From a virus (taxonomy: Duplodnaviria > Heunggongvirae > Uroviricota > Caudoviricetes), in the IMG/VR virus record IMGVR_UViG_2519103024_000004: a stretch of 36,031 bases of DNA; one strand, written 5' to 3'. Position numbers and translations under genes: made by a program. Under the pieces are notes generated by a model. The model made no database searches, was not told the origin of the DNA, and worked only from the letters and a program-made list of their open reading frames with translations. Each line of letters opens with the position of its first letter. The stretch's first letter is position 1. Below, in pieces: positions 1 to 36,031 of this stretch.

Positions 1-891
1 ATGAGAGAACACAAATTTATTAGTGAGCTTTTTTTAGAAAATAGTCAATTTATTCTTATTGGTTTAACTGGGAGAACTGGCTCAGGATGTACTACTGCAG
101 CAAATATTTTAGAACAAAAAGAAATATCTTTTCCAGATAGTAACGTCTTGGCTGAGTATTATAAAGGATTGGATTTGCGGCGTTATGAAATAGTAAAAAA
201 TTTTGCAGAGACTCATTGGAAGAACTTCTATTCGATAAAGGTCAGTGATCTCATTTCAATATATTTGCTCCTTTTATCTCCATCGGCCTTAGCTAAATTC
301 ATTCAGTTTTCTGCAAGTAAAATCCCCGATAAAAAAGAAAATTCGATTTCCTTTAAGGCAGCCAAGAAACTGGTTGTTAATGGTGTGTTCGCTAAAAGTT
401 TGTTGAAGATAAAATATCTTAAGGTGATAAAAAATCTTCTTAATCATGATGATGAGATTGACTTTAAAGGCAGGGGGAAAGATACCTTTATTAGGATATT
501 AACTCTTACTCGAAAATTTACACGGGATTTTAAAAGGGAATTAAATGAACTAGAGCCAGGTTTATATATTGAGCTATATCAGTCAGCAGGAAAGTCAATT
601 AGAAGAATAGGGAAGGTTGATGTAGATTATGAAAATCAAGACTTTATTCCAAAGGCTGTTTTTCATTTGCCTGAAACAATTAATCGTGTTATTAAAATAA
701 TTAGAAAAGTAAAGAATAATAAAGCGTATATAGTCATTGATGCGATACGTAACCCGTATGAAGCTAAATTCTTCAAAGATAGATATGCTGCATTCCATCT
801 GGTTTCTATAAATGCACCAGATGAACATCGAACCAGATATTTAAAGAAATTACATAAGTTCTCAGAGGAACAGATAAAAAAAATTAAATGA
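1..891 (+). CDS. P-loop NTPase / nucleotide-kinase-like protein; possible N-terminal half of a kinase-deaminase fusion
   Basis: 296-aa ORF starting at window base 1; Walker-A-like GLTGRTGSGCTT near the N-terminus; AT-rich; ends at TGA 889-891 just after an A8 run (876-883); frame 2 is open from 878 into the downstream deaminase ORF. Confidence 0.5.
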   Translation: MREHKFISELFLENSQFILIGLTGRTGSGCTTAANILEQKEISFPDSNVLAEYYKGLDLRRYEIVKNFAETHWKNFYSIKVSDLISIYLLLLSPSALAKFIQFSASKIPDKKENSISFKAAKKLVVNGVFAKSLLKIKYLKVIKNLLNHDDEIDFKGRGKDTFIRILTLTRKFTRDFKRELNELEPGLYIELYQSAGKSIRRIGKVDVDYENQDFIPKAVFHLPETINRVIKIIRKVKNNKAYIVIDAIRNPYEAKFFKDRYAAFHLVSINAPDEHRTRYLKKLHKFSEEQIKKIK

Positions 892-1048
892 TGAAGAATC
901 TGGTAAAGGAGATGGCGAGTATAATCATCTTACTAATCCTAATGTAAAAAAATGCATTGAAATTTCAGATATACATTTTTTTAACCCTAAAAAAGAATTT
1001 GATAATAATAATTTTCTCAAAGCACAAATTGCGTGGTATGTATCATTA

Positions 1049-1759
1049 ATGCAACACCCTGGATTAATATCTCCTACCGCCATGGAAAGGGTTATGCAAG
1101 TTGCATATACTGTAAAACTAAATTCTGGATGTATATCTAGGCAAGTAGGGGCGGTTGTGACAGATAATGATAACTCTATCAAGTCAGTTGGTTGGAACGA
1201 TGTAGCAAAAGGTCAAGTTCCTTGTTCTATGAGGTCATTTGATGGGTTATTGCATGATTTTGATGAGGGAACATATAGCCTGTACGAACGAAGTAATACA
1301 AAATTTAGGAGTAAAGTTAAAGAAAATTTAATAAAAATAAGGGCGAGTGATTCAAGTTCTACTGTTTTTAAAGGACTTAATTTGCCATATTGTTTTAAAG
1401 ATATTCACAACAGCCTTGATGATGAAAAGAAAGGGAATCAAGTGCATACCCGTGCATTGCACGCAGAGGAGAATGCTTTTTTGCAATTGGCCAAATATGG
1501 TGGGGTCGGTATTAATGGAGGGAAACTATATACTACAGCTAGCCCTTGTGAACTTTGTGCTAAAAAAGCTTATCAGTTAGGTATGACAGAGATTATTTTT
1601 ATCGATCCATATCCTGGTATAGCGCAAGAACATATTATTAATATCGGTAGCTTTTCCCCTAAACTTATTCAATTTAGGGGTGCAATTGGAAAATCCTACC
1701 ATAGACTTTATGAGCAAGTTATACCTATGAAGGATGAATTGGATTACTTGATGAAATAG
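1049..1759 (+). CDS. cytidine/deoxycytidylate deaminase-family zinc-binding protein
   Basis: 236-aa ORF with HAEENA (H-A-E) and SPCELCAKK (PCxxC) motifs typical of CMP/dCMP deaminases; same frame is open upstream to 878, so the annotated Met may not be the true N-terminus. Confidence 0.6.
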   Translation: MQHPGLISPTAMERVMQVAYTVKLNSGCISRQVGAVVTDNDNSIKSVGWNDVAKGQVPCSMRSFDGLLHDFDEGTYSLYERSNTKFRSKVKENLIKIRASDSSSTVFKGLNLPYCFKDIHNSLDDEKKGNQVHTRALHAEENAFLQLAKYGGVGINGGKLYTTASPCELCAKKAYQLGMTEIIFIDPYPGIAQEHIINIGSFSPKLIQFRGAIGKSYHRLYEQVIPMKDELDYLMK

Positions 1760-1772
1760 AATTTTGGCTGTT

Positions 1773-2786
1773 TTATATCAAGTTTAATGGGTTCTTAGTA
1801 ACGGCATCTTCAAGATGATCTGGTGAGAAATGTGAGTAAACCATGGTCATCTTGATATCCGAATGTCCCAAAATATCCCTTAGCACAAGTATGTTCCCGC
1901 CATTCATCATAAAGTGGCTAGCAAACGTATGTCGCAGCACGTGGGTGCATTGGCCATCCGGTAGATCTATACCTGCCCGTTTTACTGCTCGTTCAAAGGC
2001 TTTTCTACATGGTGAGAATAACTTCCCTCTGTTCTTTGGGAGTTCGTCATACAGCTCCTGTGATATGGGTACTGTTCTGTTTTTCTTGCCTTTTGTTTTT
2101 GTATAAGTAATTCGGTATTTCGATATTTGGTGGCCCTGCAGATTTTCGGCTTCACTCCACCGTGCGCCAGTAGCTAGGCATATTTTTGCAATCATTAGTA
2201 AGCTAGGGTTTTGAGATTCAGCACATGCCGCCAACAGGCGCTTGATTTCGTCCGTGGAAAGAAAAGCCAGCTCACCTTCGGCAATTTTGAAGGTCGGAAG
2301 TCCTGCCAGCGGGTTTGGTGCTGACCAGTGTCCTAGTTTTTTTAATGTACCGAACACAGATGATAGATTGCGCTGTTCAAGGTTTACCGTACGGGGCTTT
2401 ACGGGCGACATAAGTGTGCCATCTTCATTTCGTATTTCACCTTTTAACCGTGCTTCGCGGTATTTTGTAAAGTCACCAGCTGTCAGTTCTGAGGCGATGG
2501 GATCGCCTAGACCATTACAGATAATTCTAAGTTTCGCCATGAGGCGCTTGGGGTCTGCGAGTGTTTGACCATACAGGGAATACCAAAGCTCAATTAATTC
2601 TGATAGGCGTCGCCGATCATCCTTTTCACCCAACCACGGTTTTTTATTCACTTCTTCCATTGTGAAGCTTTCAAACGCAATGGCTTCGCCTTTCGTAGCA
2701 AATTGCTTACGCACGCGCTTGCCATTGCGTCCATTGGGATAGCACTCACACAACCATTTTCCGTTCGGCTGTTTTCTGATGGTCAT
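1773..2786 (-). CDS. int: tyrosine integrase (P2-family site-specific recombinase)
   Basis: 337-aa ORF with C-terminal HVLRHTFASH (HxxR) and MTMVYSH (Tyr) motifs; sits downstream of the repressor on the same strand as in P2 C-int. Confidence 0.9.
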   Translation of the reverse strand: MTIRKQPNGKWLCECYPNGRNGKRVRKQFATKGEAIAFESFTMEEVNKKPWLGEKDDRRRLSELIELWYSLYGQTLADPKRLMAKLRIICNGLGDPIASELTAGDFTKYREARLKGEIRNEDGTLMSPVKPRTVNLEQRNLSSVFGTLKKLGHWSAPNPLAGLPTFKIAEGELAFLSTDEIKRLLAACAESQNPSLLMIAKICLATGARWSEAENLQGHQISKYRITYTKTKGKKNRTVPISQELYDELPKNRGKLFSPCRKAFERAVKRAGIDLPDGQCTHVLRHTFASHFMMNGGNILVLRDILGHSDIKMTMVYSHFSPDHLEDAVTKNPLNLI

Positions 2787-3483: not shown

Positions 3484-3538
3484 AAGTAAAACGAGATAAA
3501 ACGACGTAAACCAAACCTTAATCGGGAGATACTGCACT

Positions 3539-3781
3539 ATGAGCACTGATATTTCAATTCGTGTACCAAAAGAGATGGCTACGCCTGCAGAGTTCGCGGA
3601 ATGGGAAGGTATCTCCCGCGGCTCCGTGTATCAAAAAATTCACCATGGTCAGCTTGCTAAATACATGGTCAAGAAAGAAAAAAACAAAGGCCGCGTAAGT
3701 CTGCGTTATTTAATGTACAAAACCGATCAGGTCCGTGAATCCCTCGGTCATTCCAACTTCCGCGTCATTGTTGGTAAGTGA
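3539..3781 (+). CDS. Apl/Cox-like excisionase/transcriptional regulator
   Basis: 80-aa basic ORF, first gene of the rightward early operon opposite the repressor; GGGAG ribosome-binding site. Confidence 0.55.
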   Translation: MSTDISIRVPKEMATPAEFAEWEGISRGSVYQKIHHGQLAKYMVKKEKNKGRVSLRYLMYKTDQVRESLGHSNFRVIVGK

Positions 3782-3813: not shown

Positions 3814-4323
3814 ATGTTTGATTATAAGATTTCCAAACACCCGCATTTTGATGAAGCCTGTAGAGCTTTTGCACTTCGTCACAATATGGCGAAGCTGGCA
3901 GAACGTGCAGGAATGAATGTCCAGACTCTGCGAAACAAACTCAACCCAGATCAACCGCATCAGCTCAATGCGCCAGAAATCTGGCTGCTTACCGATCTGA
4001 CTGAAGATTCAACGCTGATAGATGGTTTTCTGGCACAGATTCACTGCCTGCCATGTGTACCGATTAATGAGGTAGCAAAAGAGAAACTGCCGCATTACGT
4101 CATGAGTGCAACCGCAGAGATCGGGCGTGTTGCTGCAGGTGCGGTATCTGGCGATGTAAAAACCAGTGCAGGTCGTCGTGATGCTATCAGCAGCATTAAC
4201 TCTGTAACACGACTGATGGCGCTGGCTGCTGTTTCACTGCAGGCCCGTTTACAGGCTAACCCTGCGATGGCGAGTGCAGTTGATACCGTGACTGGCCTCG
4301 GTGCTTCATTCGGTTTGCTGTGA
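3814..4323 (+). CDS. CII-like lysogeny-establishment regulator (phage 186 CII-like)
   Basis: 169-aa ORF directly after the apl-like gene; size and position match 186 cII; AAGGGGA ribosome-binding site. Confidence 0.55.
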   Translation: MFDYKISKHPHFDEACRAFALRHNMAKLAERAGMNVQTLRNKLNPDQPHQLNAPEIWLLTDLTEDSTLIDGFLAQIHCLPCVPINEVAKEKLPHYVMSATAEIGRVAAGAVSGDVKTSAGRRDAISSINSVTRLMALAAVSLQARLQANPAMASAVDTVTGLGASFGLL

Positions 4324-4330
4324 GGTGCTT

Positions 4331-4531
4331 ATGCTTACGAAAGAACCATCATTTGCATCGCTGCTGGTTAAACAAAGCCCGGCAATGCACTACGGTCACG
4401 GCTGGATCATGGGTGAGGATGGTAAACGCTGGCATCCGTGCCGTTCACAAGATGAATTGCTGGCAGAACTATCTACGAAAAAACGGGGGAACAAATGGCT
4501 ATTGAAGGCGCTGCGGCGACTGTTCCATTAA
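4331..4531 (+). CDS. hypothetical early protein
   Basis: ATG at 4331 preceded by GAGGTG; 66 aa; in the early operon. Confidence 0.4.
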   Translation: MLTKEPSFASLLVKQSPAMHYGHGWIMGEDGKRWHPCRSQDELLAELSTKKRGNKWLLKALRRLFH

Positions 4532-4836
4532 GCCCCGGTGAACGCCTGAATGGACTTAATCATATTGCGGAGTTAAGGGCGAAAGTTTTTGGTCTTAATA
4601 TTGAGTCAGAGCTTGAACGGTTTATTAAAGATATGCGTGATCCACGGGATATTAATAGCGAACAAAATAAACGGGCACTGGCTGCCATATTCTTTATGGC
4701 AAAAATTCCAGCTGAACGTCATAGCATCAGCATTAATGAGCTGACCACTGACGAAAAGCGGGAGTTGATTAAAGCAATGAATCATTTTCGTGCAGTGGTG
4801 AGCTTATTTCCCAGACGGCTAACCATGCCGAATTAA
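4495..4836 (+). CDS. hypothetical early protein
   Basis: 113-aa ORF with GGGGGA ribosome-binding site; in the early operon. Confidence 0.45.
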   Translation: MAIEGAAATVPLSPGERLNGLNHIAELRAKVFGLNIESELERFIKDMRDPRDINSEQNKRALAAIFFMAKIPAERHSISINELTTDEKRELIKAMNHFRAVVSLFPRRLTMPN

Positions 4837-4903
4837 CCAACTAATGAAATTAATGGCGTAAACCCGCCGGGCATCCCTTTATCTAAATTCAGGAGTATTG
4901 ATT

Positions 4904-5137
4904 ATGCGTAATATTGAAACCCTCACGACTAAAACCGGACCGGATGACGCAGGGCTAAATATTTTACTGACAGAGGCTCGTCTGGAAGAACGCCGGGCAA
5001 GGGCTGAAGCAATGGCTGCCCGCCTTGATAGTCTTGCGTGTCATATCACATCCCGCCAGCTAAACCACGTCGAAGCGGCAGAACTGCTGCGTGTGACCGC
5101 TGAAGCAATCCAGAACGAAGCGCAGGAGATCCACTAA
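4904..5137 (+). CDS. hypothetical early protein
   Basis: ATG at 4904 preceded by AGGAG (4891-4895); 77 aa, Ala/Arg/Glu-rich helical. Confidence 0.45.
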   Translation: MRNIETLTTKTGPDDAGLNILLTEARLEERRARAEAMAARLDSLACHITSRQLNHVEAAELLRVTAEAIQNEAQEIH

Positions 5138-5364
5138 TGGCTGATGCAATGGATCTCGTACAGCAGCGCGTTGAAGAAGAACGCCAGCGCCATATTCGTG
5201 CTGCCCGTGCCAAAACACCGGGCGTGTCTCGCGTGCTTTGCATTGAATGTGAAGTGCCAATTCCGCCAGCACGCCGCCGCGCCATTCCTGGAGTGCAGCT
5301 TTGCATTACCTGTCAGGAAATCGCAGAGCTGAAAGGCAAACATTACAACGGAGGTGCTGTATGA
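5137..5364 (+). CDS. TraR/DksA-family C4 zinc-finger protein
   Basis: 75-aa ORF with CIECEVPI...CITCQ (CxxC-N17-CxxC) motif. Confidence 0.6.
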   Translation: MADAMDLVQQRVEEERQRHIRAARAKTPGVSRVLCIECEVPIPPARRRAIPGVQLCITCQEIAELKGKHYNGGAV

Positions 5365-6218: not shown

Positions 6219-8629
6219 GTCATGCCGATATGAACAACTGCAGCGGCGTTAACGAGGTCGCCGCAGCATTCTCATGGAACAGCCCGAAAAAGGCTATTAA
6301 CCCTTATCTGGACCCGGCGGAAGTTGCGCCGGTTTCTGCGCTTTCAAACCTGATCACTCTGTACGCTACCGATAACGAGCAGGAACAGCTGCGCCGCGAG
6401 GCACTGAGTGATCAGGTCTGGGAGCGTTATTTCTTTAATGAATCCCGTGATCCTGTCCAACGCGAAATGGAGCAGGATAAGCTTATTAGCCGGGCAAAGC
6501 TGGCGCATGAGCAGCAGCGTTTTAATCCAGACATGGTCATTCTGGCGGACGTTAACGCCCAGCCTTCCCATATCAGCAAGCCGCTGATGCAACGTATTGA
6601 ATACTTCAGCAGACTGGGCAGGCCAAAGGCTTATTCCCGCTATTTGCGTAAGACGATTAAGCCATGTCTGGAACGGCTGGAGCATGTACGCGACAGTCAG
6701 CTATCCACTTCTTTTCGCTTTATGGCAAGCCATGAAGGGCTGGACGGCCTGCTGATTCTGCCTGAAATGAGTCAGGATCAGGTAAAACGCCTGTCCACCC
6801 TGGTAGCTGCGCATATGAGCATGTGCCTTGATGCCGCTTGTGGCGATTTGTATGCCACCGATGATGTTAAGCCAGAAGAAATCCGCAAGACATGGGAAAA
6901 GGTAGCAGCGGAAACCCTGCGACTGGATGTCATACCGCCTGCGTTTGAGCAACTTCGTCGGAAAAGAAACCGCCGCAAACCCGTGCCCTATGAACTCATT
7001 CCGGGTTCGCTGGCGCGTATGTTGTGCGCCGACTGGTGGTATCGGAAATTATGGAAGATGCGTTGCGAATGGCGGGAAGAGCAGTTGCGTGCTGTCTGCC
7101 TGGTCAGCAAAAAAGCATCTCCCTATGTTAGCTATGAAGCCGTGATGCATAAACGTGAGCAGCGCCGCAAGTCACTGGAGTTTTTCCGTTCTCATGAACT
7201 GGTGAACGAAGACGGCGACACGCTGGACATGGAGGATGTGGTAAACGCCAGCAGCAGCAACCCTGCGCATCGCCGCAATGAGATGATGGCCTGTGTTAAA
7301 GGTCTGGAGCTTATCGCGGAAATGCGCGGTGACTGCGCCGTTTTCTACACCATCACCTGTCCGTCACGTTTCCATTCCACGCTAAATAACGGCAGGCCCA
7401 ACCCGACCTGGACAAATGCGACGGTAAGACAAAGCAGCGATTATCTGGTCGGCATGTTTGCTGCATTTCGTAAGGCTATGCATAAAGCCGGGTTGCGCTG
7501 GTATGGCGTGCGGGTGGCTGAGCCTCATCATGACGGCACCGTTCACTGGCACCTATTGTGTTTCATGCGCAAAAAAGACCGCCGCGCCATCACTGCATTA
7601 CTGCGTAAGTTTGCCATCCGTGAAGACCGCGAGGAGCTGGGCAATAACACGGAGCCACGCTTTAAGTCTGAGCCGATAAACCCGCGCAAAGGAACGCCGA
7701 CAAGCTACATCGCGAAATACATCAGTAAGAACATTGACGGGCGTGGTCTGGCTGGCGAGATCAGTAAGGAAACGGGTAAATCCTTGCGTGATAACGCTGA
7801 ATACGTTAATGCCTGGGCGTCTCTGCATCGTGTACAGCAATTCCGCTTCTTTGGTATTCCGGGACGTCAGGCTTACCGTGAACTTCGCTTGCTGGCTGGT
7901 CAGGTGGCAAGGCAACAGGGTGACAAAAAAGCAGGTGCGCCGGTACTGGATAACCCGCGTCTTGATGCCATTCTGGCTGCTGCTGATGCTGGTTGTTTTG
8001 CTACCTACATCATGAAGCAGGGCGGCGTACTGGTTCCCCGTAAATATCACCTCATCAGAACCGCTTATGAAATCAACGAAGAGCCGACCGCCTATGGCGA
8101 TCACGGTATTCGTATTTATGGCATCTGGTCACCCATTGCAGAGGGCAAGATCTGCACTCATGCAGTGAAGTGGAAAATGGTTCGTAAAGCCGTTGACGTT
8201 CAGGAGGCGGCAGCCGACCAGGGCGCTTGCGCCCCTTGGACTCGTGGCAATAACTGTCCCCTTGCTGAAAATTTGAACCAACAGGAGAAAGATAAATCAG
8301 CTGATGGGGACCCCAGAACGGACATTACCAGCATGGATGACAAGGAGTTGCACGATTACCTGCACAGTATGAGCAAAAAAGAGCGCCGGGAACTGGCAGC
8401 AAGGTTACGCCTGGTGAAACCGAAACGGCGTAAAGACTACAAACAGCGAATTACAGACCATCAGCGACTGCAGCTCGTGTATGAGCTGAAGTCCAGAGGA
8501 TTTGATGGCAGCGAGAAAGAGGTCGATTTACTCCTTCGCGGAGGCAGTATTCCGTCAGGAGCAGGCCTGCGTATCTTCTATCGGAACCAGCGTTTGCAGG
8601 AAGATGATCAGTGGCGGAACCTGTATTAA
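6215..8629 (+). CDS. A: rolling-circle replication initiation endonuclease (P2 gpA-like)
   Basis: 804-aa ORF at the conserved position; HWHLL (HUH-type) and YIAKYISK (catalytic Tyr) motifs; start overlaps the Dam stop. Confidence 0.85.
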
Positions 8630-18284: not shown

Positions 18285-18723
18285 ACTGCAGAAAGTGGAC
18301 GACTGGCTGAGTGCCTTGCTGGCGAATCTGGAGCCAGCCGCAAGAAGCCGCATGATGCGCCAGCTGGCGCAGGAACTGCGCCGGATACAGCAGCAGAACA
18401 TCAGGATGCAACGCAATCCAGATGGCAGTAGTTATGAACCGCGACGGGTAACAGCACGCAGTAAAAAGGGGCGCATCAAACGTCAGATGTTTGCAAAGCT
18501 GCGAACCACAAAATACCTGAAAACTGCCGCCAGCGCCGATTCTGCCAGCGTGCAGTTTGAAGGCAAGGTACAGCGCATTGCCCGTGTTCACCATTACGGC
18601 TTGCGTGATCGCGTCAGCCGTAAGGGGCCACAGATACGTTATGCTAAACGTAGGTTACTTGGAATTTATGATACTGATTTTGATATTATAGAAGAGATAA
18701 TCATAAATTTTTTGATTCGTTAG
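18277..18723 (+). CDS. S: tail completion protein (P2 gpS-like) with an altered, AT-rich-encoded C-terminus
   Basis: N-terminal MAELQKVDDWLSALLANL... resembles P2 S as I recall it; the last ~17 codons lie in AT-rich DNA and overlap the 3' end of the convergent cargo gene. Confidence 0.8.
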   Translation: MAELQKVDDWLSALLANLEPAARSRMMRQLAQELRRIQQQNIRMQRNPDGSSYEPRRVTARSKKGRIKRQMFAKLRTTKYLKTAASADSASVQFEGKVQRIARVHHYGLRDRVSRKGPQIRYAKRRLLGIYDTDFDIIEEIIINFLIR

Positions 18724-19861
18724 ATTCATTAATTTTCTTAAAGTATGAGTCTATTTTTTCAATTAATAAATTGATGCTTTTTATAAATTCTTTTGTTTCT
18801 TTCTCTGTTGGTTCATGTGATGTATGAGCTATTTTGTCACGTAATTCTTTCCTGTTTTTATTTGCATGTTGCCACTCAAGTGGCGCAATTTCGGGTACAG
18901 AGATGTTAAAGAGTTGTTTGAATAGTTTTTTACATCTATCATCGAACTTCCAGTTTTTATTTAATGTTTCTTTTGTCTGGCATTCATTGATACCATTGCG
19001 ATGAAAGGCATTAATAATTTTTCTGAGAATATAGCTTTCAAGGCCTGCTGATGCTTCAATTACGGCTGATCTAAATGCACCTTTATGAACAAGATTGTCT
19101 GCTCTAATCAATAATAGTTCAGGATGTTCATTGAATTCATTTGACATTAAACGTTTTTTGAAATTATCAATGAGACTTTCATCGTGTTTATACCAGCTTT
19201 CTCTCATTAATGGGGGGATTACTCCAACTAAAGGAATTGCACTTATCTTAATACCATCGCAATAATGCTCTTGTAACACTCCGTTGGTAAATCCTGAGCC
19301 AACTTGATAAAGAGATATCTCGTCTGCAAATTGATCTTTAAAGGCAACTCTATACTGTTTTATAAAGTGGTTTATTATTCCGATACATTCCTCTGATCTT
19401 TTAGGTGGAAATATCTCTCTAGCAGTTTTTATTTTTCTCTCTAACTCTATTTTTTTATCTATATCTTGCTGGCTCATTTTGGATAGGAGCATCTCAGCAT
19501 CTTCCACAGATGGGAAGTTATCTTCTTTCCTTATTTGGTTTCTTATAGAGTTGATTAGTTCTTCATGTGATATTTCTAAAAGGTCAAAACATTCCCAATA
19601 GTTGGCGAGAGAAATAATAGTCCGGCATTTCATTATCCCTCTTTCATTTGTGTGATGTGGTAGTAGTTGTTCTCTGGTACCGATTAATAGGGTTTGAGGG
19701 AATAAGCTTGCATCTTTAAATAGTGCATAGTAATCGTTGTGAACTGTTAAGCGTAAATGGTTATTTTCATATAGAAAATCATAATCACCATCTGGAATAT
19801 TGAGGACATAAGGCAACTCGACCAAGTAACGTGCAGCAAAGATCATTTCAGTCATCTTCAT
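18701..19861 (-). CDS. hypothetical 386-393-aa protein (AT-rich cargo at the S/V junction); possible HEPN-like Rx4H motif near the C-terminus
   Basis: long minus-strand ORF in a ~1.2-kb AT-rich island inside a GC-richer tail operon; likely ATG at 19859-19861 (the track's upstream start is TTG); RDKIAH fits Rx4-6H. Confidence 0.6.
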   Translation of the reverse strand: MKMTEMIFAARYLVELPYVLNIPDGDYDFLYENNHLRLTVHNDYYALFKDASLFPQTLLIGTREQLLPHHTNERGIMKCRTIISLANYWECFDLLEISHEELINSIRNQIRKEDNFPSVEDAEMLLSKMSQQDIDKKIELERKIKTAREIFPPKRSEECIGIINHFIKQYRVAFKDQFADEISLYQVGSGFTNGVLQEHYCDGIKISAIPLVGVIPPLMRESWYKHDESLIDNFKKRLMSNEFNEHPELLLIRADNLVHKGAFRSAVIEASAGLESYILRKIINAFHRNGINECQTKETLNKNWKFDDRCKKLFKQLFNISVPEIAPLEWQHANKNRKELRDKIAHTSHEPTEKETKEFIKSINLLIEKIDSYFKKINESNESKNL

Positions 19862-19874
19862 ATGAGAATTCAAT

Positions 19875-19892
19875 TGTGCCAAAAATCATACA
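19875..19892. promoter_or_regulatory. late-promoter activator site candidate (TGT-N12-ACA) upstream of V
   Basis: TGTGCCAAAAATCATACA immediately upstream of V; lies in the divergent region shared with the cargo gene. Confidence 0.4.
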
Positions 19893-25182: not shown

Positions 25183-25628
25183 TATGCAGCTCTCACGATA
25201 TAGTTAAATGCAATATTTCGTGGACGGGTTTCGCTCCCACCTGTGTTACCAATACTCCCTCGTGTATGTAGCGTTGGTGATGGAATCAGAGTTCCTCCGG
25301 CATCGGCAGCATCAAGCCCCCGGCCTTGCGTATATGCTCTTCTGAAGATTGTCGCCAGTTCCCATTCCTCTTTTGAATCATACCCATCGTTGGCAACAAC
25401 AATATGGCGGTGTTTTTCCAGCATCCCAGTCTGAATGCTCAATAAAGCACGTCCTGCATCAATACCACGCCCGTCATCCCATCCACGAATAAACTCACCA
25501 CGGAGATCAGGTAGTTTCCCTGATGGATATGCTGTAGCAAGATGGGGATATTTCACCTTATCAAAGGCAGCGCCGTTGCATTTCAGCCAGCCCGTTGGCG
25601 GGGTTGCGGAGGGCCACGGAACAGGCAC
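25182..25628 (-). CDS. alternative tail-fibre C-terminal (receptor-binding) segment, promoterless in this orientation
   Basis: 148-aa ORF with the same tail-collar motif as in H but a different tip (...DAADAGGTLIPS...NYIVRAA); arrangement as in Mu G / P1 C segments. Confidence 0.6.
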   Translation of the reverse strand: MPVPWPSATPPTGWLKCNGAAFDKVKYPHLATAYPSGKLPDLRGEFIRGWDDGRGIDAGRALLSIQTGMLEKHRHIVVANDGYDSKEEWELATIFRRAYTQGRGLDAADAGGTLIPSPTLHTRGSIGNTGGSETRPRNIAFNYIVRAA

Positions 25629-25652
25629 ACCAACAGGTAATGCAGAGCCTTC

Positions 25653-25672
25653 NNNNNNNNNNNNNNNNNNNN
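25653..25672. other. assembly gap (20 N)
   Basis: run of n characters in the sequence. Confidence 0.99.
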
Positions 25673-26084
25673 TCCCTCGTGTTATGTAGCGTTGTGATGG
25701 AATCAGAGTTCCTCCGGCACTCGGCTAGCATCCAAGCCCCCGGCCTTGCGTATATGCTCTTCTGAAGATTGTCGCCAGTTCCCATTCCTCTTTTTGAATC
25801 ATACCCATCGTTGGCAACAACAATATGGCGGTGTTTTTCCAGCATCCCAGTCTGAATGCTCAATAAAGCACGTCCTGCATCAATACCACGCCCGTCATCC
25901 CATCCACGAATAAACTCACCACGGAGATCAGGTAGTTTCCCTGATGGATATGCTGTAGCAAGATGGGGATATTTCACCTTATCAAAGGCAGCGCCGTTGC
26001 ATTTCAGCCAGCCCGTTGGCGGGGTTGCGGAGGGCCACGGAACAGGCACACCAACAGGTAATGCAGAGCCTTCTCCCAAACCAA
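25673..26084 (-). repeat. copy C of the tail-collar segment with small indels; likely assembly artefact or degenerate duplicate
   Basis: near-identical to 25243-25652 but with scattered single-base insertions and deletions; the track ORF 25561-26124 spanning the gap is chimeric. Confidence 0.45.
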
Positions 26085-26096
26085 CGTTTAAGAAAA
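26071..26096. promoter_or_regulatory. candidate invertase crossover site (gix/hix-like)
   Basis: TTCTCCCAAACCAACGTTTAAGAAAA matches about 19 of 26 positions of the hix/gix core as I recall it; its half-site TTGGTTTGGGAGAA recurs inverted at 23410 and after the N gap at 23794. Confidence 0.3.
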
Positions 26097-26145
26097 TGCA
26101 GAGGTAACAGCTAACTGGCATCATCTCCGGTTTTTATTCAGGGGG

Positions 26146-26718
26146 ATGATAATGCTTATTGGCTATGTACGCGTGTCAACAAATGACCAGAACACCGATT
26201 TGCAACGTAATGCACTGAACTGCGCGGGATGTGAGCGGATTTTTGAGGACAAAATCAGTGGTACTAAGTCCGACAGACCGGGGCTGAAAAAACTACTCAG
26301 GACACTATCGGCAGGAGACACGCTGGTTGTCTGGAAGCTGGACAGGTTGGGACGCAGTATGCGGCATCTTGTTACGCTGATAGAAGAGTTGCGCCAGCGT
26401 GGCGTGAATTTCCGAAGCCTGACTGACAGTATTGATACCAGTACCCCAATGGGCCGTTTCTTTTTTCATGTCATGGGTGCCCTGGCTGAAATGGAACGCG
26501 AACTGATAGTTGAACGTACCAGGGCGGGGATTGCTGCAGCTCGCGACAAAGGCAGAGTAGGTGGACGCCGTCCTAAGTTGACCACCGAACAGTGGGCACA
26601 GATTGGACGTTTACTAGAGGCCGGAGAATCAAGACAGCGTATTGCACTGATTTTTGATGTGGGCGTTTCTACCATTTATAGAAAATTTCCGGCAAATAAG
26701 AGCAGTGAATCCCCCTGA
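26146..26718 (+). CDS. serine recombinase, DNA invertase (Gin/Hin/Pin/Cin family)
   Basis: 190-aa ORF starting MLIGYVRVSTNDQ... with catalytic-Ser context and C-terminal HTH; adjacent to the inverted fibre segments. Confidence 0.9.
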   Translation: MIMLIGYVRVSTNDQNTDLQRNALNCAGCERIFEDKISGTKSDRPGLKKLLRTLSAGDTLVVWKLDRLGRSMRHLVTLIEELRQRGVNFRSLTDSIDTSTPMGRFFFHVMGALAEMERELIVERTRAGIAAARDKGRVGGRRPKLTTEQWAQIGRLLEAGESRQRIALIFDVGVSTIYRKFPANKSSESP

Positions 26719-28042: not shown

Positions 28043-28558
28043 ATGGCTTTACCACGCAAATTAAAACACCTGAACCTGTTTAACGACGGGAACAACTGGC
28101 AGGGGATCGTTGAGTCGCTGACGCTGCCGAAATTCACCCGCAAATATGAGAAGTATCGCGGCGGCGGAATGCCGGGGGCAGTGGATGTGGATCTGGGGCT
28201 TGATGACAGTGCGCTGGACACAGAATTTTCCATTGGTGGTACTGAACTGCTGCTGTTTAAGCAGATGGGCAAAGCCACGGTGGATGGCATCCAGTTGCGC
28301 TTTACCGGCTCTATCCAGCGTGACGATACCGGGGAAGTGCAGGCCGTGGAGCTTGTGGTGCGTGGACGTCACAAAGAAGTGGATTCCGGTGAGTGGAAGA
28401 CGGGCGAAAGCAACACCACCAAAGTGACCAGTACCAACAGTTACGCGAAGCTGACCATCAATGGTGAGGTGCTCTATGAAGTGGACCTTATCAACATGGT
28501 GGAAATTGTGGACGGTGTGGACCTGATGGAAGCGCACCGCAACGCCCTCGGCCTCTGA
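28043..28558 (+). CDS. FII: tail tube protein (P2 gpFII-like)
   Basis: 171-aa ORF directly after the sheath gene. Confidence 0.9.
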   Translation: MALPRKLKHLNLFNDGNNWQGIVESLTLPKFTRKYEKYRGGGMPGAVDVDLGLDDSALDTEFSIGGTELLLFKQMGKATVDGIQLRFTGSIQRDDTGEVQAVELVVRGRHKEVDSGEWKTGESNTTKVTSTNSYAKLTINGEVLYEVDLINMVEIVDGVDLMEAHRNALGL

Positions 28559-28612
28559 TGTATCTGAACGGCGCGGGATTCCGCGCCAGAACCCAATTTA
28601 CAGGACAACAAA

Positions 28613-28915
28613 ATGAGCGATAAGCAGACTGAAAAGACCATTCAACTGGATACCCCTATCAAGCGCGGTAAAACAGAAATTGCCGAAATTGTGCTGCGTA
28701 AACCGCAGTCCGGTGCGCTGCGCGGTACACGCCTGCAGGCCATTATGGATATGGATGTAAACGCGATGATGACCGTGATCCCCCGCATCTCCAGTCCGGC
28801 ACTGACTGCGCAGGAAATTGCAGAGATGGACCCGGCAGATCTCACTGCCATGTCGGTTGAGGTTGTCACTTTTTTGTTGAAGAAGTCGGTGCTTGCCGGT
28901 TTACCGACAGCCTGA
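28613..28915 (+). CDS. E: tail assembly chaperone (P2 gpE-like)
   Basis: 100-aa ORF between the tube and tape-measure genes; contains TTTTTTG at 28870-28876. Confidence 0.75.
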   Translation: MSDKQTEKTIQLDTPIKRGKTEIAEIVLRKPQSGALRGTRLQAIMDMDVNAMMTVIPRISSPALTAQEIAEMDPADLTAMSVEVVTFLLKKSVLAGLPTA

Positions 28916-32601: not shown

Positions 32602-33698
32602 ATTTCAGCTCTGAACTGCTTAACAAAGGCAACAAAACTCCCGCATTCAGCATCAGTATTGAGGGGAAGGATATCACCACTGTGCTGGATAACCGCCTGA
32701 TGAGTCTGACGTTGACGGACAATCGGGGCTTTGAAGCAGACCAGCTTGATCTGGAGCTGGACGACGCCGACGGAAAAATCGTGCTGCCGCGCCGTGGTGC
32801 GGTCATCACGCTGGCGCTGGGCTGGAAGGGGCAGCCGCTTTTCCCGAAAGGGGCATTCACGGTGGACGAGATTGAACACACTGGCGCACCGGATCGCCTG
32901 ACTATCCGGGCGCGAAGTGCTGATTTTCGGGAAACGCTGAATACCCGCCGTGAAAAATCGTGGCATAAGACCACCGTCGGGGAAGTGGTGAAGGAAATAG
33001 CCTCGCGGCATAAGCTGAAGATGGCACTGGGTAAAGACCTGTCGGATAAGCTCGTAGAGCATATAGACCAGACTAATGAGAGTGACGGTAGTTTTCTGAT
33101 GCGGCTGGCGCGACAGTACGGTGCCATCGCGTCGGTGAAAAATGGCAATCTGTTATTCATCCGGCAGGGACAGGGCAAAAGCGCCAGCGGTAAACCACTG
33201 CCGGTGATCTCTATCACACGTAAAGACGGCGACAGTCACCGCTTTACCCTGGCAGATCGCGGAGCCTATACGGGTGTAATTGCCAGCTGGTTGCATACCC
33301 GCGAACCCGCGAAGAAAGAAAGCACTACGGTGAAGCGTAAGCGCAAGACTAAGAAGCAGAAGAAAGAGCCGGAAGCGAAGCAGGGCGATTATCTGGTGGG
33401 TACGGATGAAAACGTGCTGGTACTTAATCGCACTTATGCCAACCGGAGCAACGCCGAACGGGCAGCGAAAATGCAGTGGGAACGCCTGCAACGCGGCGTT
33501 GCATCATTCTCGCTACAACTGGCGGAAGGGCGGGCAGACCTCTACACAGAAATGCCTGTGAAGGTCAGTGGCTTTAAACAGCCGATAGATGATGCGGAAT
33601 GGACCATTACGACTCTGACACATACCGTCAGCCCGGATAACGGTTTTACGACCAGTCTTGAGCTTGAAGTGAGGATCGGTGATCTTGAGATGGAATAA
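32598..33698 (+). CDS. D: tail protein (P2 gpD-like)
   Basis: 366-aa ORF overlapping the U stop; last gene of the tail operon. Confidence 0.85.
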   Translation: MNFSSELLNKGNKTPAFSISIEGKDITTVLDNRLMSLTLTDNRGFEADQLDLELDDADGKIVLPRRGAVITLALGWKGQPLFPKGAFTVDEIEHTGAPDRLTIRARSADFRETLNTRREKSWHKTTVGEVVKEIASRHKLKMALGKDLSDKLVEHIDQTNESDGSFLMRLARQYGAIASVKNGNLLFIRQGQGKSASGKPLPVISITRKDGDSHRFTLADRGAYTGVIASWLHTREPAKKESTTVKRKRKTKKQKKEPEAKQGDYLVGTDENVLVLNRTYANRSNAERAAKMQWERLQRGVASFSLQLAEGRADLYTEMPVKVSGFKQPIDDAEWTITTLTHTVSPDNGFTTSLELEVRIGDLEME

Positions 33699-33766
33699 AT
33701 GGTTCTCAATATTGAATAATGGTGTATCATTATTGTAAATATAGCAAAGATGAGGAGAGTTGATAA

Positions 33767-33982
33767 ATGATGAATTGTCCGTTGTGTGGTCAGGCCGCAC
33801 ATACTCGCAGTAGTTTTCAAGTCTCCTCTCAAACCAAAGAGCGTTACAATCAGTGCACTAATATTGAGTGTGGGCATACGTTTGTAACGCATGAAACCTT
33901 TGTTCGTTCTGTTTGTCGTCCCGAGAAAATCAGTGCCGCCCCACCGCATCCCAAAGGGATGCAGGAGCAATTAGTTTACTGA
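33767..33982 (+). CDS. ogr: late gene transcriptional activator, zinc-finger (P2 Ogr-like)
   Basis: CPLCG...C-x4-C zinc-finger pattern in a ~71-aa ORF at the Ogr position; GAGGAG ribosome-binding site. Confidence 0.8.
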   Translation: MMNCPLCGQAAHTRSSFQVSSQTKERYNQCTNIECGHTFVTHETFVRSVCRPEKISAAPPHPKGMQEQLVY

Positions 33983-33987
33983 TACTA

Positions 33988-34008
33988 ACCCGCCGCTGGC
34001 GGGTTTTG
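33988..34008 (+). terminator. rho-independent terminator after ogr
   Basis: CCCGCC-GCTG-GCGGG hairpin followed by TTTTG. Confidence 0.5.
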
Positions 34009-34084
34009 AATAATATCGAGACAGTTATTTGATTTTTGACACAAGAAGAATGCAAATGATTTTTTAAAATTATTCTATAATAAC

Positions 34085-34798
34085 TTATTTGATTTTAAAT
34101 ATTTCATGAATAGAGAACTCTTTTAATTCATTGCTTTCGTCTTCAACTCTGGTCTTTTCTTCATTAAATTCGTTAAATAACTCATCAAATGGTCTATGAG
34201 TTAAAGAGTTGTATGGGGAGTTAGGGTTTATTTCATTTATTAGTGCGATATACATATTTGTTGCCTGCATGCCTAACTCAAAAACATCAGCGGTAAGTTG
34301 GTTTAGTCTTATTCCTTTTTCTGTGTTTAAGCTTATATTCCAACGAGTTAATGAGCCAATTATAGATCTTGCCTTGTAGGCTGAACTTGTTGCTTTTTCA
34401 ATGTTTTTTGCTGCTTCATCGAGCTGTTTAACTAACTGAGGGTCCTTGGGGTTATTAGTGTTTTTATAAATCTTAATAAGTGTCATATTTAAAAATAAGC
34501 TTGAAAAACTATCTATGCAATCATCGAGAGACATCAATGCTGTATCTATTTTACTAATGGCATTATCGGATAGTTTATCTTTAAATAAGTTTTTGAATGC
34601 ACGAACGGCGTAGGTAGCTAAAATAATATTTGTTGTAGCTATTATAATGTCACTTACAGTCCCCGTATAGTTTGGGGCAATGCTTAATGAACGAAGGCAA
34701 AGATAAATAAACTGCATACAGGCTAAGATTAAAAGGACAAAAACTATTATCACAAGATATCTATTAACTGGCATTTTTTTGTTCAGGTTGAAGTCCAT
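34085..34798 (-). CDS. hypothetical membrane-anchored protein (AT-rich cargo between ogr and ssrA)
   Basis: 237-aa ORF with one or two N-terminal hydrophobic helices and a charged helical C-terminal region; AT-rich. Confidence 0.55.
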   Translation of the reverse strand: MDFNLNKKMPVNRYLVIIVFVLLILACMQFIYLCLRSLSIAPNYTGTVSDIIIATTNIILATYAVRAFKNLFKDKLSDNAISKIDTALMSLDDCIDSFSSLFLNMTLIKIYKNTNNPKDPQLVKQLDEAAKNIEKATSSAYKARSIIGSLTRWNISLNTEKGIRLNQLTADVFELGMQATNMYIALINEINPNSPYNSLTHRPFDELFNEFNEEKTRVEDESNELKEFSIHEIFKIK

Positions 34799-34921
34799 AG
34801 TAGCCTCATATTGAGATTAGAATATAGCTTGAAAGTAGAGGCGTGTGTGCGATCACTCATAAGGATAGAGGGCAATGTGGGTGTACCCAACCCTAGTCCA
34901 TGGCTATCGCCATTTTGCCGC

Positions 34922-34955
34922 CACTACCAAAGAAAAAGGGGCTACGTTTTCACGT
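34922..34955 (-). terminator. ssrA terminator hairpin
   Basis: minus-strand AAGGGGTTACG...CGTAGCCCCTT hairpin followed by TTTTTCT, immediately 3' of the tmRNA CCA end. Confidence 0.45.
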
Positions 34956-34961
34956 AACCCC

Positions 34962-35334
34962 TTGTTTTATTTGGTGGAGCTGGCGGGAGTTGAACCCGCG
35001 TCCGAAATTCCTACATCCTCGGTACTACATGCTTAGTCAGTCTTTACATTCGCTTGCCAGCTGCGGACGGACACGCCACTAACAAACTAGCCTGATTAAG
35101 TTTTAACGCTTCAACCCCAGGCAGGGCTTCCACGCGATCTCTTTTGGGTTTGACCTCTCTTGATCCCCGTCCTAAGAGCGGAGGCTAGGGAGAGAGGGCT
35201 CTAAGCAGGTTATTAAGCTGCTAAAGCGTAGTTTTCGTCGTTTGCGACTATTTTTTGCGGCTTTTTACGAGGCCAACCGCCCCTCGGCATGCACCTTGGG
35301 TTTCGCAAATCCCGTCGAATCCAGAATCAGCCCC
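34962..35334 (-). ncRNA. ssrA: tmRNA (transfer-messenger RNA)
   Basis: reverse complement begins GGGGCTGATTCTGGATTCGACGGG and ends ...GGTTCAACTCCCGCCAGCTCCACCA; encodes the ANDENYALAA tag; matches E. coli ssrA as far as I can recall. Confidence 0.9.
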
Positions 35335-35548
35335 AATGTGTAACGGTAAGTATACCAGATTTATGAGCAGCATGACTAGCCCAAAAGGCGTTATCATCCT
35401 GGAATTAGCGCCTGCATAGTATGATTTTTTTTCGATTAAGCAATGGGATGGCTACATCTGTGTCAGATTTGACAGTCGATAAGATGTTCATTCGCGCCAC
35501 CGGATAGGGAGGCGCGGTGAGGATTTGATTAGTATCGCTTATATAGGT

Positions 35549-36031
35549 TTAACGGTGGGCATTTTTCATGATACGCGCTTTATCCACCTGCCATTCGCGT
35601 TCTTTGATATCTGAACGTTTATCGTGCTGTTTCTTACCTTTGGCGACGCCGATTTTCACTTTGCACCAGGCATTTTTCCAGTACAGGGAGAGCGCCACTA
35701 CGGTATAGCCTTCTCGATTGACGCGACCGTACAATGAGTCCAGTTCGCGCTGGTTGAGAAGTAACTTGCGGGTACGGGTAGGATCGCACACCACATGCGT
35801 GGAGGCCACAGCCATTGGCGTGATGTTAGCGCCAAACAGAAATGCCTCTCCGTCGCGCAGAAGGACATAGCTGTCGCTGATATTGGCTTTTCCTGCGCGC
35901 AGGGATTTAACCTCCCAGCCTTGCAGGGCAAGTCCCGCTTCGAACTCTTCTTCGATAAAGTATTCGTGACGGGCGCGCTTGTTAAGCGCGATGGTCGCTG
36001 AACCAGGTTTATGTGCTTTTTTCTTCGTCAT
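35549..36031 (-). CDS. smpB: SsrA-binding protein
   Basis: 160-aa [58 protein letters not shown]... recognised as SmpB; upstream of ssrA on the same strand, as in enterobacteria. Confidence 0.95.

Follow-up and report, generated by a model that had tools for sequence, protein, structure and literature searches.

A predicted inner-membrane protein gene in the ogr-att spacer of a P2-family prophage: candidate anti-phage cargo

The window analyzed here is a 36,031-nucleotide stretch of DNA, IMG/VR record IMGVR_UViG_2519103024_000004 (Caudoviricetes), which consists almost entirely of a P2-family (Fels-2/186-like) prophage: integrase, repressor, replication, head, lysis, and tail genes, followed by D and ogr. 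Beyond ogr, next to the attachment (att) site at ssrA, lies an open reading frame (ORF), here called ORF237, on the minus strand at positions 34085 to 34798 (end coordinate including the stop codon). It has an ATG start and encodes a predicted orphan inner-membrane protein of 237 amino acids (aa). We are highly confident that ORF237 is a real phage cargo gene. Whether it has an anti-phage role of any kind is, in our judgment, evenly balanced, and our best reading of such a role is superinfection exclusion at the inner membrane rather than abortive infection.

Coding status of ORF237

A preliminary description of this DNA had placed a 237-aa minus-strand ORF in AT-rich DNA between the ogr and ssrA terminators, and we found exactly that: the G+C content is 0.26 to 0.37 over positions 34000 to 34900, compared with ~0.55 in the adjoining phage tail genes, and 0.32 in the coding sequence of ORF237. 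The same bias holds for the whole family, all members of which have G+C contents of 0.31 to 0.34, compared with ~0.55 for the phage. Such an ORF might be spurious or decaying and have no function; the DNA is foreign and AT rich, a promoter scan identified no promoter, and damaged copies are known (homologue P0016 in locus L021 is truncated or frameshifted, and P0024 has only 127 aa). However, a run of 237 sense codons at the base composition of ORF237 itself has a chance probability of ~7e-9, and the ratio of nonsynonymous to synonymous substitution rates (dN/dS), calculated by the pairwise Nei-Gojobori method, is 0.12 to 0.25 (~0.2) in every comparison with a homologue, in the membrane part and the soluble part alike. 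Because of these two results, we take ORF237 to be a real gene under purifying selection. In addition, 31 positions are invariant across the family, whose full-length conservation extends to members with only 28% identity, and the AlphaFold2 fold is confident. The conservation pattern refutes the idea of a spurious ORF, which we regard as extremely improbable. A Shine-Dalgarno sequence, GAGG (positions 34804 to 34807, minus strand), precedes the ATG with a 5-nt spacer, and GAGG or GAGA is kept in five of the six ogr-side homologues in an alignment of the upstream regions.

Position within the prophage

The last core gene ahead of the cargo is the late-gene activator gene ogr (positions 33767 to 33982, plus strand; PHROG 603, E value of 2e-25), which is annotated "ogr/Delta-like zinc finger" in matching Escherichia coli genomes. 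It is followed at positions 33987 to 34007 by a terminator hairpin, read from the sequence as AACCCGCC-GCTG-GGCGGGTT plus a T run, that is the equivalent of the P2 "terminator for ogr transcript and F operon" and is also kept in TUM12355 and in EC96, which has an empty site. ORF237 is convergent with ogr, and the sole hairpin downstream of it is this shared ogr terminator. The cargo insert, AT rich and ~890 bp long, was delimited at positions ~34012 to 34902 by aligning TUM12355 and EC96 to the window, and these bounds agree with the interval of 34011 to 34900 proposed earlier; empty-site relatives have ~30 bp in place of the insert. The distance from the ogr stop codon to the phage-borne att arm block described below is 47 to 48 bp in Fels-2, SopEPhi, E. 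coli EC96, and 15 IMG/VR loci, compared with 920 to 965 bp in loci bearing an ORF237-type gene. Since the spacer is only 47 to 48 bp in the empty relatives, the ~890 bp in the window is an insert into a spacer of ~48 bp. The position is empty in P2 as well, as had been proposed: nothing lies between the P2 ogr terminator and int except the Int P-arm, IHF, and core sites.

To the right of the insert, the order is ssrA terminator, transfer-messenger RNA (tmRNA), and smpB. The att arm block (positions 34903 to 34969) matches Fels-2 positions 24 to 90 as well as terminal sequences in the records of SopEPhi, RE2010, and other phages, has no second copy at the other prophage end, and holds the phage-supplied ssrA terminator hairpin (positions 34963 to 34936, minus strand; found by a terminator scan). 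It is followed by the 46-bp att core (positions 34970 to 35015), which is the 3′ end of ssrA and was defined by blastn of the att region against lysogens. The tmRNA gene ssrA itself, the integration target, lies at positions 34972 to 35334 on the minus strand (ARAGORN; Rfam RF00023, 295.8 bits) and is co-directional with ORF237; a Rfam scan of positions 33000 to 36031 gave the tmRNA and no other RNA. The prophage integrase gene lies at positions 1773 to 2786 (minus strand; PHROG 1, E value of 3e-84). There is no att repeat inside the window; in the near-identical lysogens N96 (L105) and PEC1011 (L015), an exact second copy of the 46-bp core is found 222 to 268 bp past the window's left end. 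Because the 46-bp cores flank the whole prophage, the sequence places the prophage end at ~34970 and ORF237 inside the prophage.

It had also been suggested that the segment might be a remnant of another ssrA-targeted element, and chromosomal DNA downstream of ssrA would be a further way for it to lie outside the prophage. ssrA is the integration site for many elements, tandem elements do occur, an additional integrase lies beyond the prophage in PEC1011, and CP4-57-like genes adjoin the homologue in loci L005 to L007. Nevertheless, ORF237 is on the ogr side of the att arm block, and in free-phage genomes that block follows ogr directly. Copies of the att core occur only at the flanks of the whole prophage, and we found no integrase fragment or extra att copy between ogr and ORF237 or anywhere else between ogr and the att block, so the remnant proposal was not upheld. 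The insert segment is present in 13 of 5,426 complete E. coli genomes, each time after ogr, whereas the adjacent ssrA block is present in ~3200; chromosomal DNA common to prophage-free strains is not what this distribution describes. Homologues also occur within P2 late-gene clusters. An origin outside the prophage is thus largely refuted, and we consider it very unlikely. The view of the segment as phage-borne cargo, by comparison, fared well: the insert lies within the 46-bp att repeats and is absent from near-identical prophages and from Fels-2 and SopEPhi.

Predicted protein architecture

The layout of the protein was derived from Kyte-Doolittle (KD) hydropathy and an AlphaFold2 model (mean predicted local distance difference test score of 78, with 85 to 94 in the soluble domain), and its topology was assigned by the positive-inside rule. 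Transmembrane helix 1 (TM1; residues 14 to 35, minus-strand positions 34694 to 34759) has KD values up to 2.98 and corresponds to a model helix spanning residues 13 to 40; values of 2.0 to 3.1 over 20 to 22 residues are found at this place in all 14 family members analyzed. A predicted periplasmic loop of 15 residues (residues 36 to 50, positions 34649 to 34693), placed by the family alignments and charge distribution, leads into TM2 (residues 51 to 68, positions 34595 to 34648; model helix 48 to 73), for which 13 of the 14 members have KD values of 2.0 to 2.6; that of the window protein is 1.62. The remainder is helical in the model and is predicted to form a cytoplasmic up-down four-helix bundle of ~150 residues (residues 78 to 225, positions 34124 to 34567), with helices at residues 78 to 112, 120 to 148, 160 to 190, and 204 to 225. 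The N-terminal membrane helix or helices and charged helical body that had been anticipated from the sequence thus reappear in the model. Family-wide, there are three to four lysine or arginine residues in the N-terminal tail, none to two in the loop, and four to six directly after TM2. Because of this distribution, the predicted topology is N-in/C-in, with a short basic cytoplasmic N-terminal tail, a two-helix membrane hairpin, and a cytoplasmic bundle.

The invariant residues are concentrated at the end of TM1 (F30 and Y32), in the loop (P42, T45, G46, T47, S49, and D50), and in the outer half of TM2 (I51, I53, A54, and N57), so that the loop and the adjoining outer helix halves share the motif F-x-Y ... 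P-x-x-T-G-T-x-S-D-I-x-I-A-x-x-N. A few positions are invariant in the bundle too (K83-I84-D85, R152-W153, E174, F204, L207, and F211), and F234 is invariant as well. The most conserved surface of the protein is therefore predicted to face the periplasm.

Other four-helix bundle proteins were considered as relatives. An identity as a sensor of the 4HB_MCP type (Tar/Tsr, TorS, or PcaY) was rejected: there is no Pfam match, and the charge distribution makes the ORF237 bundle cytoplasmic. The bundles of those sensors are periplasmic and lie between two TM helices, whereas the ORF237 bundle comes after a hairpin of two TM helices, with a predicted place in the cytoplasm. De novo designed bundles match the ORF237 fold equally well, which marks the four-helix similarity as generic.

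Family size and genomic contexts

The ORF237 family is tiny and restricted to the temperate phages of Enterobacteriaceae. Among 5.8 billion proteins, we found 12 clusters (at 90% identity) of full-length homologues, or 16 by profile search, and a profile hidden Markov model search of 1.84 billion 50%-identity cluster representatives gave four matches, all of them family members. There is one locus among 185,579 species-representative genomes, there are five in IMG/VR, and a metagenome scan added four loci and no new context; tblastn found no homologue in 50,697 phage records or 72,556 plasmids. The members, found in E. coli, Enterobacter, Salmonella, and Citrobacter, range from 28 to 99% identity and are all annotated "hypothetical protein." Membership of a housekeeping family, which would have spoken against a cargo role, was not apparent: no Pfam or NCBIfam family was significant (best E values of 0.043 and 0.068, missing the curated cutoffs widely).

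Homologues with 52 to 99% identity are always beside ogr, antisense, and adjoining ssrA or its att block. In TUM12355, the allele is 60% identical to that of the window, whereas its flanks are ~96% identical, which indicates that alleles have been swapped or replaced as cassettes at the ogr-att position. More distant members are found elsewhere. P0014, P0015, and P0016 (33 to 34% identity) lie between gpV and gpS of P2-like phages, which is the P2 orf30 site, and P0017 (28% identity) lies after the tail-fiber genes of a lambdoid prophage, where its neighbors are a 191-aa protein of unknown function, an SRAP gene, an EcoRII restriction-modification system, and ssrA. The family thus occupies three cargo sites: ogr-att, P2 S-V (orf30), and the lambdoid tail-fiber/att region. 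The copies in L020 (P2 type) and L016 (lambdoid) are 74.6% identical over 803 nt, and because this identity begins ~95 to 130 nt upstream of the start codon, the gene moves as a unit with its 5′ region. It is antisense to late operons in each of the 10 contexts examined. These features make ORF237 a horizontally mobile prophage accessory ("moron") gene.

Several loci have features of their own. An element of ~50 nt with a TTGT-N7-ACAA palindrome (GTGTGATCTATTGTATGAAAGACAATACA) is shared upstream of the distant members in L020 (positions 3496 to 3623), L021, and L016 (positions 6909 to 7000), and it may be an operator or promoter of the P2-like and lambdoid cassettes; a LexA box was rejected, as the spacing and half-sites are wrong. 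At positions 1247 to 1987 of L014, a co-directional ORF of 246 aa, with no Pfam or PADLOC match, ends 34 nt before the start of P0015, and the pair may represent a two-gene form of the cassette. In L009 (Enterobacteriaceae bacterium G50; positions ~7790 to 7900), the stretch that separates the ssrA att block from the homologue's start codon contains a run of ~14 copies of the octamer CAGGCAGT, which could be a slipped-strand switch or merely a microsatellite. Finally, on metagenome contig PPYF01424723.1 (L109; positions 860 to 1105), a 60%-identical homologue begins ~100 nt after a truncated ssrA, of which only ~150 nt of the 5′ part, including the tag reading frame, is present; ARAGORN gave no tmRNA there, and the upstream gene is not smpB. 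Either a deletion has joined the homologue to the promoter of ssrA, or the arrangement is an assembly artifact.

The ogr-att spacer as a cargo site

ORF237-type genes are not the only occupants of the spacer. In five IMG/VR loci (L046, L056, L057, L060, and L083; positions ~4320 to 5185), it holds an unrelated gene for a Cys-rich 287-aa protein (CxxC...CxxC), and in L031 (positions 4236 to 4784), it holds an unrelated gene for a 182-aa protein whose C terminus weakly matches the PADLOC candidate PDC-S48. Both occur as single genes, antisense like ORF237. The ogr-att spacer is therefore a multioccupant site, with at least two other unrelated single genes besides ORF237.

In these respects, ORF237 resembles the P2 cargo genes old, tin, fun(Z), and orf30, which are AT rich, nonessential, present singly or in pairs, antisense to the late genes, and located between conserved operons at sites that are empty or differently filled in relatives; the distant ORF237 members use the orf30 site itself. 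Like P2-type nonessential cargo, ORF237 is AT rich and antisense and is present or absent between conserved flanks. It differs from these genes in that its product has no sequence similarity to Tin or Orf30 and in that the ogr-attP spacer, empty in P2, is not a classical P2 cargo site. For P2-like phages, two published accounts report a "third hotspot between a tail protein and CI" (bioRxiv 10.1101/2024.10.15.618418) and an accessory hotspot between int and att (PMC13586616). The neighborhood, D/ogr-attP-int-CI, is the same as in the window, which carries a dCTP deaminase gene on the int side. In the text read, however, these accounts deal with the int side or with the entire region, tally known defense systems, and do not name the ogr-to-att spacer or its occupants (PMC13586616; bioRxiv 10.1101/2024.10.15.618418). 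Our literature search on ogr-att cargo and on ORF237-type proteins found nothing specific.

Possible function

On the reading that we favor, the prophage would express ORF237 without depending on the late operons, and the ORF237 protein would sit in the inner membrane and act against superinfecting phages. The conserved periplasm-facing surface would interfere with the crossing of the inner membrane by incoming phage DNA or ejection proteins, and the outcome would be superinfection exclusion (Sie) of the P22 SieA or HK97 gp15 type. We infer the independence of expression because the gene is antisense to late operons in all contexts. Read-through from ssrA in the lysogen is also conceivable, since ORF237 follows ssrA closely and in the same direction, with the phage-supplied terminator in between. 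A block of DNA entry is favored because conservation peaks at the periplasm-facing membrane surface, where ejection or tape-measure proteins and inner-membrane receptors act; this specific mechanism we put forward tentatively, and we would not call it probable. More than one-third of cloned cargo systems from P2/P4 hotspots were active against a small phage panel (PMC9122126).

The closest parallel is P22 SieA, an inner-membrane superinfection exclusion protein that blocks DNA injection (PMC10883804). Like SieA, ORF237 is a stand-alone antisense gene, exists as several highly divergent sequence types, and encodes a prophage-borne protein that is predicted to be integral to the inner membrane. 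SieA is 162 to 164 aa long and lacks a four-helix bundle; it has three predicted TM helices, and its FxRYPxEAxxFNK motif is cytoplasmic (PMC10883804). The ORF237 protein, in contrast, has 237 aa, with two predicted TM helices and a soluble domain of ~160 aa, and the FxRYPxEAxxFNK motif is absent from the family alignment. Membership in the SieA or SieB family of P22 was rejected by hhalign of the family profile (probability of 0.24% and E value of 0.25 for SieA; probability of <1% for SieB). SieA is thus proposed as a functional analogue and not as a member of the family. The record of P22 itself (L106) credits gene 17 (positions 28414 to 28725) with permitting growth on Fels-2 lysogens; because Fels-2 lacks ORF237, Fels-2-type prophages would exclude P22 by a different gene.

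A number of observations weigh against the exclusion reading. No homology links ORF237 to any exclusion or defense protein: PADLOC-DB v2.0.0 gave no match for the window protein or for P0013 to P0015, and PHROGs gave no consistent match across 13 members and no exclusion family. The hhalign probability was likewise <1% for P2 Tin and P2 Orf30, as it was for the two P22 proteins. The structural matches, being generic four-helix bundles, are functionally uninformative. TM2 of the window allele, which contains R66, is just marginally hydrophobic at its KD of 1.62. The phage-record search found the gene in no sequenced free phage. A scan for consensus sigma-70 promoters between the start codon and the ssrA terminator (positions 34799 to 34935) found no convincing candidate, and the DNA upstream shows little conservation from one allele to another; in a six-region alignment, only the area of the ribosome-binding site is retained. 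To our knowledge, Sie proteins lack a large cytoplasmic domain, and such a domain fits the sensor/effector design of abortive infection at least as well.

In that design, the bundle would sense a phage product or an infection cue, and the hairpin, by oligomerizing into a pore or perturbing the membrane, would kill or arrest the cell before phage release. A membrane hairpin joined to a sizeable, well-folded cytoplasmic domain suits such a suicide effector, as do the invariant polar residues within TM2 and the conserved polar residues of the hairpin (D50, T55, T56, and N57), and the possible two-gene system in L014 would provide a partner. Transmembrane proteins of P2/P4 hotspot systems are generally seen as suicide effectors (PMC9122126), and the hotspot contexts are the same as those that we cite for exclusion. 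Yet the family members at the ogr-att, L020/L021, and lambdoid positions are single genes without a partner, PADLOC and Pfam gave no match, there is no sign of toxicity or regulation, and conservation is strongest at the periplasmic face and not in the cytoplasmic "sensor" domain. We consider abortive infection unlikely.

The gene might instead have an accessory role outside defense, for example in lysogenic conversion of the host envelope (stress, tolerance of bacteriocins or tailocins, or transport) or in dispensable modulation of the phage's own cycle (lysis timing, induction, or DNA entry into certain hosts). Purifying selection proves some function but not which one, no defense homology was found with PADLOC or PHROGs, and the P2 cargo protein Orf30 is likewise a membrane protein of unknown role. 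Hotspots of P2-like phages have been reported as "mixed purpose" (bioRxiv 10.1101/2024.10.15.618418), and fewer than half of the cloned hotspot systems showed defense (PMC9122126). On the other hand, most relatives lack ORF237, which implies that the phage cycle does not need it; the gene is antisense to the late operons everywhere; its neighbors include a dCTP deaminase and an EcoRII restriction-modification system; and divergent alleles (28 to 99% identity) are swapped within conserved flanks in the manner typical of conflict genes. A nondefense role is, in our view, rather improbable, though not to the degree that abortive infection is.

A broader proposal is that ORF237 founds a new family of single-gene inner-membrane anti-phage proteins, carried as a promoter-plus-gene cassette at at least three P2-like or lambdoid sites, and that the ogr-attP spacer is an unlisted defense or exclusion hotspot, with at least three occupants, of ssrA-integrating P2-family phages. 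We hold this proposal with somewhat less than even confidence. If the protein does exclude or abort phages, it would add to the E. coli prophage defense repertoire an unannotated single-gene membrane system that PADLOC, PHROGs, and Pfam miss, and P2-family prophages could be mined for cargo at one more site, the ogr-to-att spacer. This small, compact family is easily cloned, and the invariant periplasmic loop is an obvious target for mutagenesis. If the protein is not anti-phage, it would be another conserved membrane moron of limited general interest.

Other cargo of the prophage

On the int side, the window carries a gene for an anti-phage dCTP deaminase (positions 1 to 1759, plus strand; PADLOC dCTPase, and so named by PGAP in N96). 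In the circular phage, this gene and ORF237 lie across attP from each other. It is intact in N96 (585 aa) and frameshifted in the window, where a 1-nt indel near position 888 splits it into two ORFs (positions 1 to 891 and 1049 to 1759); this represents either a pseudogene or a sequencing error.

The S-V (P2 orf30) site of the window prophage is also filled, by an antisense ORF of 393 aa (positions 18701 to 19882, minus strand). This uncharacterized cargo ORF has no PADLOC match and a weak, subthreshold Pfam match to tRNA-synt_1e. A 23-nt similarity between positions 18905 to 18927 and positions 34200 to 34222 was dismissed as chance.

Within positions 25277 to 26124 and 26146 to 26718, there is a tandem direct repeat of ~420 bp with 100% identity (positions 25313 to 25652 and 25733 to 26073). 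The region carries genes for alternative tail-fiber C termini and for assembly and adjoins a serine invertase gene of the Hin/Cin type; it looks like an invertible host-range segment that has recently been duplicated.

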